From the NCBI RefSeq assembly GCF_003334785.1, contig NZ_QOWV01000004.1: a stretch of 64,000 nucleotides of DNA. The stretch is one strand, 5' to 3'. Source of the stretch: Escherichia coli. Its GTDB lineage: Bacteria; Pseudomonadota; Gammaproteobacteria; Enterobacterales; Enterobacteriaceae. The notes beneath the pieces are model-generated. The model did not search any database. It had not been told where the DNA came from and worked only from the letters and a program-made list of their open reading frames with translations. This document shows, in pieces, positions 23,864 to 24,827 of this stretch; position 1 is the first letter of the stretch, and each line of letters opens with the position of its first letter. Made by a program: the position numbers and the translations under genes.

Positions 23864-24229
23864 ATGGACTGGTATCTGAAAGTACTAAAAAATTATGTCG
23901 GTTTCCGGGGTCGTGCGCGGCGCAAAGAGTACTGGATGTTTATTCTGGTCAACATCATCTTTACGTTCGTGCTGGGGCTGCTGGATAAAATGTTAGGCTG
24001 GCAACGCGCTGGTGGCGAAGGCATCCTGACGACAATCTACGGTATTCTGGTGTTTTTACCGTGGTGGGCGGTTCAGTTCCGCCGCCTGCACGACACCGAC
24101 CGCTCGGCGTGGTGGGCACTGCTATTCTTAATCCCGTTTATCGGCTGGCTTATTATCATCGTCTTTAACTGCCAGGCGGGTACGCCAGGCGAAAACCGCT
24201 TTGGACCAGATCCAAAACTGGAACCTTAA
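23864..24229 (+). CDS. yhaH: DUF805 inner-membrane protein YhaH, 121 aa
   Basis: Start at ATG MDWYLKVLKNYVGF...; paralog of the downstream ORF. Confidence 0.8.
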   Translation: MDWYLKVLKNYVGFRGRARRKEYWMFILVNIIFTFVLGLLDKMLGWQRAGGEGILTTIYGILVFLPWWAVQFRRLHDTDRSAWWALLFLIPFIGWLIIIVFNCQAGTPGENRFGPDPKLEP

Positions 24230-24470
24230 AACAAATCTGCTCGCCGGATGTCTGACTCATCCGGCTTTTATCATTATGTTGATGAATGAATAATTTACTA
24301 ATGTTTATTTAAAATATTTCAATGTCGTTATATAAATTACCTATAAAAAATAACCATGTATTTATCTTAAATATCAAAACCTTTATAACATCCGAAAAAG
24401 AAAGATACGAATAGCATTTACACAATACCCGGAATAGACTTTCGTCACTTTTAATTAAAGGGATGTTTTT

Positions 24471-24827
24471 ATGCAGTGGTATTTGTCCGTATTAAAAAAT
24501 TATGTTGGTTTCTCTGGTCGCGCACGTCGTAAAGAGTACTGGATGTTTACTCTGATTAACGCCATCGTCGGCGCTATTATCAATGTCATTCAATTGATTT
24601 TAGGTCTGGAGCTTCCATATCTGTCTATGCTTTATTTGCTGGCAACCTTCCTTCCCGTCCTTGCGCTTGCTATCCGTCGCTTACACGATACCGACCGTTC
24701 AGGTGCCTGGGCCTTGCTCTTTTTTGTTCCGTTTATTGGCTGGCTCGTGCTTCTGGTTTTTTTCTGCACAGAAGGTACTTCTGGCAGCAATCGTTACGGA
24801 AACGATCCGAAGTTTGGTTCAAATTAA
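24471..24827 (+). CDS. yhaI: DUF805 inner-membrane protein YhaI, 118 aa
   Basis: MQWYLSVLKNYVGFSGRARRKEYWMF... clearly paralogous to YhaH. Confidence 0.8.
   Translation: MQWYLSVLKNYVGFSGRARRKEYWMFTLINAIVGAIINVIQLILGLELPYLSMLYLLATFLPVLALAIRRLHDTDRSGAWALLFFVPFIGWLVLLVFFCTEGTSGSNRYGNDPKFGSN

Follow-up and report, generated by a model that had tools for sequence, protein, structure and literature searches.

The adjacent genes yhaH and yhaI of Escherichia coli encode small inner-membrane proteins of the DUF805 family. Our analysis of a 64-kb stretch of E. coli DNA that contains this pair (hereafter, the window) suggests, with a probability that we put at about 0.7, that these are separately transcribed genes of different standing, namely, a core gene, yhaH, and an accessory gene, yhaI, which is located on a cassette and silenced by H-NS. 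In the mechanism that we propose, yhaH would be a conserved and expressed core gene that ends at its own intrinsic terminator (24243-24275), and yhaI would be an old, fast-evolving paralog on a lower-GC cassette of ~650 bp that is present in ~80% of E. coli strains. The 205-bp leader of yhaI, with an AT content of 77% and without a good sigma-70 promoter, would most likely be a nucleation site for H-NS that keeps the gene nearly silent, and this repression would be relieved by counter-silencers or envelope-stress regulators, such as Ler and the Cpx pathway. The paralogy, the terminators, the base composition, the accessory status of yhaI, and the separation of the YhaH and YhaI clades come from the present analysis.

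Two DUF805 paralogs and the age of their duplication

The window represents a K-12-like E. coli chromosome: the 1,330 bp around yhaH-yhaI match thousands of complete E. coli genomes, in which RefSeq names the genes yqjG, yhaH, yhaI, and yhaJ, and both open reading frames of the pair are 100% matches to RefSeq yhaH and yhaI. On the plus strand, yhaH (23864-24229; 121 amino acids) is followed by yhaI (24471-24827; 118 amino acids). Other local open reading frames are yqjF (22032-22514), yqjG (22563-23570), and yhaK (25879-26580). The gene for a LysR-type regulator, yhaJ (24878-25774, minus strand), is convergent with yhaI and is conserved in every genus examined, anchoring the DUF805 slot on its right-hand side. 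In every K-12 record, yhaH and yhaI are annotated as DUF805 paralogs, so that their paralogy is already known, and the locus is an annotated and ordinary one, with some unusual strain-to-strain variation.

YhaI matches the Pfam DUF805 model (PF05656) with an E-value of 6.5e-32 over model positions 1-110 of 111, and YhaH, its 56% identical paralog, has relatives that carry PF05656, in agreement with the family assignment made for both proteins in the initial annotation. In an alignment of 68 diverse sequences, including YhaH, YhaI, and the product of the divergent yhaI allele described below, the invariant columns are G16, R17, R20, E22, W24, P62, R69, R70, H72, D73, P87, N107, G110, and P113. 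Both proteins carry the DUF805 motifs, with G-R-x-x-R-x-E-x-W ahead of helix 1, RRxHD closing helix 2, and N-x-x-G-x-x-P in the tail. Three hydrophobic helices are predicted for each of the two. The AlphaFold2 model of YhaI, built on the 68-sequence alignment (pLDDT 89.7, pTM 0.80), consists of a short N-terminal helix, helices 20-44, 50-73, and 78-99, the last of which is kinked at the invariant P87, and a short structured tail. By the positive-inside rule, the C-terminal tail is predicted to be periplasmic, which is at odds with the fluorescence at the membrane of a C-terminal GFP fusion of YhaH (PMC3225971).

The YhaI model superposes on DUF805 proteins from more than 2000 AFDB50 clusters, with a TM of about 0.9, and this family is among the more widespread bacterial membrane families without a function. 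The search of AFDB50 with the model returned DUF805 proteins only, and neither fold comparison nor a sequence profile identified a relative in the PDB. Among the neighborhoods of 80 distant DUF805 loci, no gene family is common to more than 5. Screening with the PADLOC anti-phage models gave no hit for YhaH, and for YhaI only a match to a generic 4TM effector model, at an E-value of 0.075. Both YhaH and YhaI match the "moron" membrane protein PHROG 12855, and homologs are present in only a few phage records.

The pairwise similarity of the two proteins, on which the initial annotation had relied, is significant (56% identity over 118 residues; BLASTP E-value 7e-48). The N-terminal motif WYLxVLKNYVGFxGRARRKEYWMF and the RRLHDTDRS motif that it had singled out are indeed common to YhaH and YhaI, and the divergence that it had noticed in the central transmembrane region peaks in hydrophobic helices 1 and 2. 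Its description of the pair as duplicated small membrane proteins holds with respect to paralogy but not as a simple local duplication, given the separate multi-genus clades and a nucleotide identity of 59%.

YhaH orthologs from Salmonella, Klebsiella, Citrobacter, Superficieibacter, and E. marmotae are 82-97% identical and form a tight clade. In a neighbor-joining tree of these short proteins, computed without bootstrap support and readable only for its split into two clades, E. coli YhaI groups with the product of the second DUF805 gene of C. amalonaticus, C. rodentium P0114, a Superficieibacter protein encoded by the third gene of a four-gene array, and an Intestinirhabdus alba protein encoded by a single gene. 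Identity among YhaI-type proteins of different genera is 58-66%. Because the YhaI-type proteins cluster apart from the tight YhaH clade, the paralogy predates E. coli, Citrobacter, Superficieibacter, and Intestinirhabdus. The YhaI type evolves several times (3-4x) faster than YhaH.

A recent local tandem duplication of yhaH, with the two copies co-regulated or contained in one operon, is a highly improbable origin of yhaI and is already largely refuted, even if the genes are adjacent, on the same strand, and of the same family, and their first 96 nt are 79% identical. These 96 nt are the best stretch of a pair that shows only 59% nucleotide and 56% amino acid identity overall, and even there, the synonymous difference (pS) is 0.46, no lower than that between YhaI-type genes of different genera. 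Because this value is at the between-genus level, there is no sign of either recent duplication or gene conversion; the latter, considered for the similar 5' ends of the two genes, is unsupported. Moreover, the YhaI type is a multi-genus clade of its own, a strong terminator is predicted between the genes, and yhaH and yhaI differ in their response to Ler and CpxR.

The yhaI cassette and its variation in E. coli

With respect to the preferred reading of a core gene beside an accessory paralog, yhaH was found in 5393 of the 5426 complete E. coli genomes, in all cases with at least 95% identity, and it belongs to the core of both E. coli and Enterobacteriaceae. The spacer together with yhaI is present in about 4360 of these genomes (~80%); in ~1040 genomes, the same query hits nothing but the paralogous yhaH. 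Among the genomes that lack yhaI are those of O25b:H4-ST131 and O83:H1 NRG 857C, both of which belong to phylogroup B2. In strain L001, which also lacks yhaI, the end of yhaH reads ...LEQE, and a spacer of 41 bp, whose hairpin differs, separates the gene from yhaJ. The outgroup E. marmotae, likewise without yhaI, has this 41-bp hairpin spacer of B2-type E. coli, and Salmonella and Klebsiella each have a single yhaH, no yhaI, and a hairpin of their own.

Because B2-type E. coli and E. marmotae carry the 41-bp spacer at this position, the K-12 arrangement looks like a replacement of that short spacer by a low-GC cassette of ~652 bp (24225-24876, plus strand), the junctions of which, as read off alignments, may be off by a few bases. 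The cassette would encompass the last codons of yhaH, the terminator, the AT-rich leader, yhaI, and the terminator that follows it. The GC content of yhaI is 44.8% (GC3, 46%) versus 51.9% (GC3, 62%) for yhaH. We infer that the cassette was gained in non-B2 E. coli rather than lost elsewhere, which is the more economical reading; the YhaI-type genes at the same position in Citrobacter and Superficieibacter also fit ancient presence followed by repeated loss.

Among 5.8 billion sequences, those outside E. coli and Shigella included no protein exceeding about 72% identity to YhaI, and no YhaI relative above 63% was detected in a scan of 100,044 species representatives with YhaI-specific peptide patterns, which are blind to YhaH orthologs. 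At the slot upstream of yhaJ, the number of DUF805 genes ranges from 1 to 4 copies per genus, and in Intestinirhabdus alba, the YhaI-type gene is the sole DUF805 gene at the locus.

Two main alleles of yhaI account for ~38% each in E. coli. Classified by the identity of the spacer and yhaI to K-12, the K-12-type allele (at least 95%) is present in about 2082 genomes, the divergent allele (80-90%) in about 2055, and an intermediate allele (90-95%) in about 245. The K-12-type and divergent alleles are deeply diverged only over a mosaic patch of 173 bp (24606-24778, plus strand; nucleotides 136-308 of yhaI), which covers helix 2, the RRLHDTDRS loop, and helix 3 of the protein. Between the alleles, the patch has a nucleotide identity of 69%, with dS of 1.45 and dN of 0.20; outside the patch, dS is at most 0.035 in the rest of yhaI and 0.06-0.11 in the neighboring genes. 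Recombinant YhaI proteins with other breakpoints exist as well, for example, P0017. Gene conversion from yhaH was rejected as the source of the patch, since the identity to yhaH in this region is about 50% for either allele, with neither being closer. Given a dN/dS of about 0.14 and the retention of every family-invariant residue, both versions of the patch are functional coding sequences under purifying selection.

The K-12-type allele contains a T7 homopolymer (24757-24763, plus strand), which is missing in the divergent allele. We tested this tract as a frameshift hotspot and rejected it. The YhaI proteins of 131 and 139 amino acids in the databases correspond to +1 and -1 changes in the tract; in complete genomes, T7 was found 1982 times, T6 4 times, and T8 11 times. 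With only 15 of ~2082 genomes varying, phase variation of yhaI as a contingency gene is not a tenable explanation. Read-assembly sources account for most of the frameshifted database proteins, and most variants of the tract are probably assembly errors or rare mutants.

A rival view would see yhaI as a dispensable gene in decay, a silent relic whose constraint is relaxed and which is heading for loss, with the variation amounting to neutral erosion. Such a fate would fit the absence of the gene from ~20% of the genomes, its disruption or deletion by IS1 in some strains, the frameshifted forms in the databases, the 3-4 times faster evolution compared with yhaH, and the low basal expression implied by the large induction ratios. 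We nevertheless consider it unlikely, because dN/dS is about 0.14 in the patch, where dS is saturated, and all 15 family-invariant residues are conserved in both alleles. Furthermore, 1982 of the 2082 K-12-type genomes are exact at a 67-nt probe around T7, with a one-base change of the tract in only 15, and Intestinirhabdus alba keeps a YhaI-type gene as its only DUF805 gene at this locus.

Terminators, the AT-rich leader, and regulation

Turning to the separate, silenced control of yhaI that is part of our main reading, the spacer between the two genes, put at ~240 bp in the initial annotation, measures 241 bp (24230-24470), and the coordinates given there are exact. It contains a hairpin (gccggatgtctgactcatccggc, 24243-24265) that begins 13 nt past the stop codon of yhaH. 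The 8-bp stem is perfect and includes 6 GC pairs, the loop comprises 7 nt, and the structure folds with a dG of -15 kcal/mol (z -3.78); a U-rich tail (UUUUAUCAUU / TTTTATCATT) follows. A consensus scan classified the hairpin as terminator-like, with the characteristics of an intrinsic (Rho-independent) terminator. On the strength of the GC-rich stem, the loop, and the tail, we predict that 24243-24275 (plus strand) is the intrinsic terminator of yhaH. In C. amalonaticus, an unrelated hairpin occupies the equivalent position after yhaH. Another GC-rich hairpin (24838-24855; dG -16.3 kcal/mol, z -4.5) lies between the convergent yhaI and yhaJ and is likely to be a bidirectional terminator of both.

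The spacer hairpin had been called REP-like. It is real, but its layout is that of a terminator, and only the 8-nt stem is common to the REP consensus. This stem, GCCGGATG/CATCCGGC, which also occurs at the ends of Y-type REPs, constitutes the likeness to REP/BIME elements. Unlike these, the yhaH hairpin measures 23 nt, as against about 35 nt, is perfectly palindromic, has neither the internal REP stem nor the CTAC tail, and is located right after a stop codon with a U tract behind it. Across the 64-kb window, there are only two occurrences of the stem pattern (GCCGGATG, 3-30 nt, CATCCGGC), of which the one outside this hairpin has a different loop, and a single occurrence of the full hairpin. 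Together with the perfect 23-nt palindrome and the lack of a REP-derived Rfam hit, these counts led us to reject a REP identity.

True, if degenerate, REPs are found upstream of yhaH, not in the spacer. In the yqjG-yhaH intergenic region, a stable fold at 23623-23656 (plus strand) presumably is a degenerate Y-type REP hairpin, assigned by eye to the REP consensus. In an Rfam scan, 23619-23655 weakly resembles naRNA4, an RNA derived from REPs. A second REP-like hairpin, likewise stable and in inverted orientation, is predicted by folding at 23692-23732 (minus strand), and the two together look like a BIME. Consistent with these observations, yhaH has been described in the y-ome paper as "surrounded by repeat sites" (PMC11551758).

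The AT content of the spacer, given as "well above 75 percent" in the initial annotation, is 72.2% for the whole spacer and 77.1% downstream of the hairpin, so that the figure was a slight overstatement. The AT-richness as such is borne out: the spacer is the GC minimum of the window, with only 0.6% of the 241-nt windows equally low, and its GC fraction of 0.18-0.30 in 100-nt windows is far lower than the genome average, as is expected for H-NS-silenced genes. By its composition, the 205-bp segment downstream of the hairpin (24266-24470, plus strand; 77% AT) can be considered the leader and promoter region of yhaI and a presumed H-NS target. A promoter scan of the leader found no sigma-70 site at the default threshold and only weak candidates (8-9/12). 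A search of the spacer for the CpxR box gave a single match with one mismatch (24294-24308), and a search for the high-affinity H-NS motif gave a single weak match, in both cases no better than chance. Between the E. coli allele classes, the leader is near-identical, and the spacer is as conserved as the surrounding DNA. Short open reading frames of 21-38 codons are present in the spacer on both strands, without any support.

Instead of serving as promoter and leader, the AT-rich spacer could itself be the functional element, for instance, as a small RNA that has escaped annotation, as a gene for a small protein, or as what is left of a mobile element or REP; we give this alternative very little credence. 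The unusual AT-richness and the length of 241 bp could be interpreted along these lines, as could the short reading frames on both strands, the conservation among E. coli alleles at the level of the surrounding DNA, and the IS1 insertions nearby in some strains. However, an Rfam scan of the spacer gave no match even at an E-value of 1 or less, no direct or inverted repeats of the kind that mark a mobile element are present in it, and the reading frames are unsupported. The Citrobacter spacer is similarly AT-rich yet can be aligned to the E. coli leader only just upstream of the ribosome-binding site, and this pattern is more readily reconciled with a silenced regulatory region than with a structured RNA or a gene for a peptide.

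Ler is an antagonist of H-NS. In enterohemorrhagic E. coli (EHEC), it activates yhaI 36-fold, which is among the highest values in the table of the respective study, and yhaI is one of only four Ler targets outside the LEE island (PMC3891560). When CpxR is overproduced in MG1655, the expression of yhaI rises 3.2-fold according to arrays and 40.3-fold according to qRT-PCR, compared with 1.9-fold for yhaH (PMC2731931). In ChAP-seq data for K-12, SE11, and SE15, H-NS-bound DNA overlaps the coding region of yhaH in one or more of the strains, and yhaI is absent from the core-gene table that lists yhaH as H-NS-bound (PMC4720273, S2 Table). We found neither an H-NS occupancy nor an hns-mutant expression value for yhaI in the published data consulted. 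In Salmonella, the YhaH protein has been detected, rises towards stationary phase, and is repressed by the sRNA SdsR (PMC5137417). The presence of H-NS at the locus and the induction by Ler and CpxR are thus taken from published work, as is the need of certain phages for YhaH.

The suggestion that the two genes have separate and possibly silenced promoters fares well in its first part: a terminator is predicted after each gene, and the published responses to Ler and CpxR differ between them, supporting separate transcription units. Silencing is plausible, considering the AT-rich leader, the 36-fold effect of Ler on yhaI, and the scoring of H-NS at yhaH, and from these we infer that H-NS silences yhaI directly via the leader. 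The H-NS signal scored at yhaH may originate in the AT-rich DNA that precedes this gene and not in the spacer, and the effects of Ler and CpxR on yhaI could be indirect.

Possible role in phage interactions and relation to known systems

Mutation of yhaH makes E. coli TK001 resistant to PhiWec188 and PhiWec190, and the mutant can again be infected by these phages when complemented (bioRxiv 10.1101/2024.11.29.626071; PMC12695924). A more far-reaching interpretation, which we regard as a long shot, is that the slot upstream of yhaJ is a fast-turnover DUF805 site shaped by phages or other membrane-targeting antagonists. YhaI would then be a variable partner, decoy, or substitute, its helices 2 and 3 would persist as two ancient alleles under balancing or frequency-dependent selection, and H-NS would keep yhaI off until needed. 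This interpretation is compatible with the 1-4 copies per genus, the presence or absence of the gene, the two alleles at ~38%, the restriction of the dS of about 1.45 to 173 bp with a dN/dS of about 0.14, and the rare DUF805 morons of phages.

Under the main reading, in which a probably silenced accessory paralog is kept beside a conserved core gene, the locus is a convenient test case for such arrangements. It offers three handles on DUF805: the requirement of phages for YhaH, the strong induction of yhaI by Ler and Cpx, and the two ancient alleles of the YhaI membrane core. The parts that appear worth remembering are the accessory cassette, these two alleles, and the variation in copy number between genera.

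Similarly to targets of xenogeneic silencing of the H-NS/Ler type, yhaI has AT-rich upstream DNA, a GC content below that of its neighbors, and an accessory distribution; it is induced 36-fold by Ler, and H-NS-bound DNA has been reported at the locus. It differs from such targets in that it is a single 357-bp gene in a conserved chromosomal slot, not an island, and a paralog of the neighboring core gene, with the occupancy of its leader by H-NS being presumed. With regard to the DUF805 family, YhaH and YhaI are full-length members with all the invariant motifs, and nothing sets them apart. Inner-membrane proteins serve as host factors for several phages, including ManYZ for lambda, PtsG for HK97, and NfrB for N4. 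Whereas YhaH was termed a receptor by the authors of the phage study, it resembles these post-adsorption host factors in that it is an inner-membrane protein, the loss of which blocks PhiWec188 and PhiWec190.

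Variation in DUF805 gene content upstream of yhaJ

The number of tandem DUF805 paralogues upstream of yhaJ, the convergent LysR-type regulator gene, varies from 1 to 4 among Enterobacteriaceae. The corresponding slots extend over 1269-3331 of the Superficieibacter sp. locus (L088) and 3409-4360 of the Citrobacter amalonaticus locus (L004), and in Intestinirhabdus alba a YhaI-type gene (L087 2501-2860) is the only DUF805 gene at the yhaJ-linked locus. In the window, yhaI and its AT-rich leader form a cassette of approximately 652 bp (24225-24876); at this position, B2-type E. coli (L001 3640-3685) and E. 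marmotae (L086) have a spacer of only 41 bp, which contains another hairpin. In genomes with this spacer, YhaH ends in LEQE, whereas in those with the cassette it ends in LEP. In several E. coli strains, the yhaH-yhaI segment is interrupted or replaced by IS1 (L002 3288-3985; L090 937-1634; matches H1 and H10), and in one strain, IS1 occupies the place of both genes.

Two alleles of yhaI and the T7 tract

Among E. coli, a 173-bp patch of yhaI (24606-24778) exists as two deeply diverged alleles with 69% nucleotide identity (dS 1.45, dN 0.20), and outside it, the gene ends and the leader are near-identical between the alleles. Each allele is carried by about 38% of complete E. coli genomes, with recombinant intermediates in some 245 others. 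The K-12-type gene contains a T7 tract (24757-24763), the length of which is seven in 1982 complete genomes, eight in 11, and six in 4. Frameshifted YhaI products of 131 and 139 amino acids turn up often in databases built from read assemblies, whereas complete genomes seldom encode them.

Hairpins and AT-rich DNA around the gene pair and elsewhere in the window

The intergenic region between yqjG and yhaH contains two degenerate REP hairpins (23623-23656 and 23692-23732) that make up a BIME-like pair. Two below-threshold Rfam matches were found here: a weak one to naRNA4 (23619-23655), and one to isrD (23570-23614, minus strand) that falls on the terminator hairpin of yqjG and probably arose by chance. 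Elsewhere in the window, a hairpin at 5259-5279 has the same GCCGGATG...CATCCGGC stem as the yhaH terminator hairpin (24243-24265); this second occurrence is probably another terminator.

In the yhaI leader, the CpxR consensus GTAAA-N5-GTAAA is matched with one mismatch at 24294-24308 on the minus strand; the frequency of such one-mismatch matches in the window is not above that in shuffled sequences. Further troughs of very low GC content (0.24-0.29 in 241-nt windows), at 38697-39177, 40279-41046, 57665-57954, and 60785-61270, are possible additional H-NS-type regions.

Topology, nomenclature, and phage homologues

Given its three hydrophobic helices and the way its charges are distributed, YhaH would be expected to have its C-terminus in the periplasm; this conflicts with the membrane fluorescence of its ASKA C-terminal GFP fusion (PMC3225971). 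In the structure model, an invariant proline kinks the third helix. The label “putative cytochrome”, attached to YhaI and YhaH in older records, has no basis in the sequence. The name yhaI is also borne by a Klebsiella pneumoniae-specific LAMP target, which seems to be a distinct gene of the DUF805 type because a primer for it encodes RRMHD (PMC8864245); the yhaJ-linked locus of Klebsiella (L085) contains no match to this primer.

Relatives of these proteins are also found in phages. The Shigella Stx phages 75/02 (KF766125.2/NC_029120.1, 16349-16693) and POCJ13 (KJ603229.1/NC_025434.1, 16337-16681) contain an unannotated DUF805-like reading frame with 36% identity to YhaI (E = 2e-9), and PHROG 12855, in the “moron” category, matches both YhaH and YhaI.
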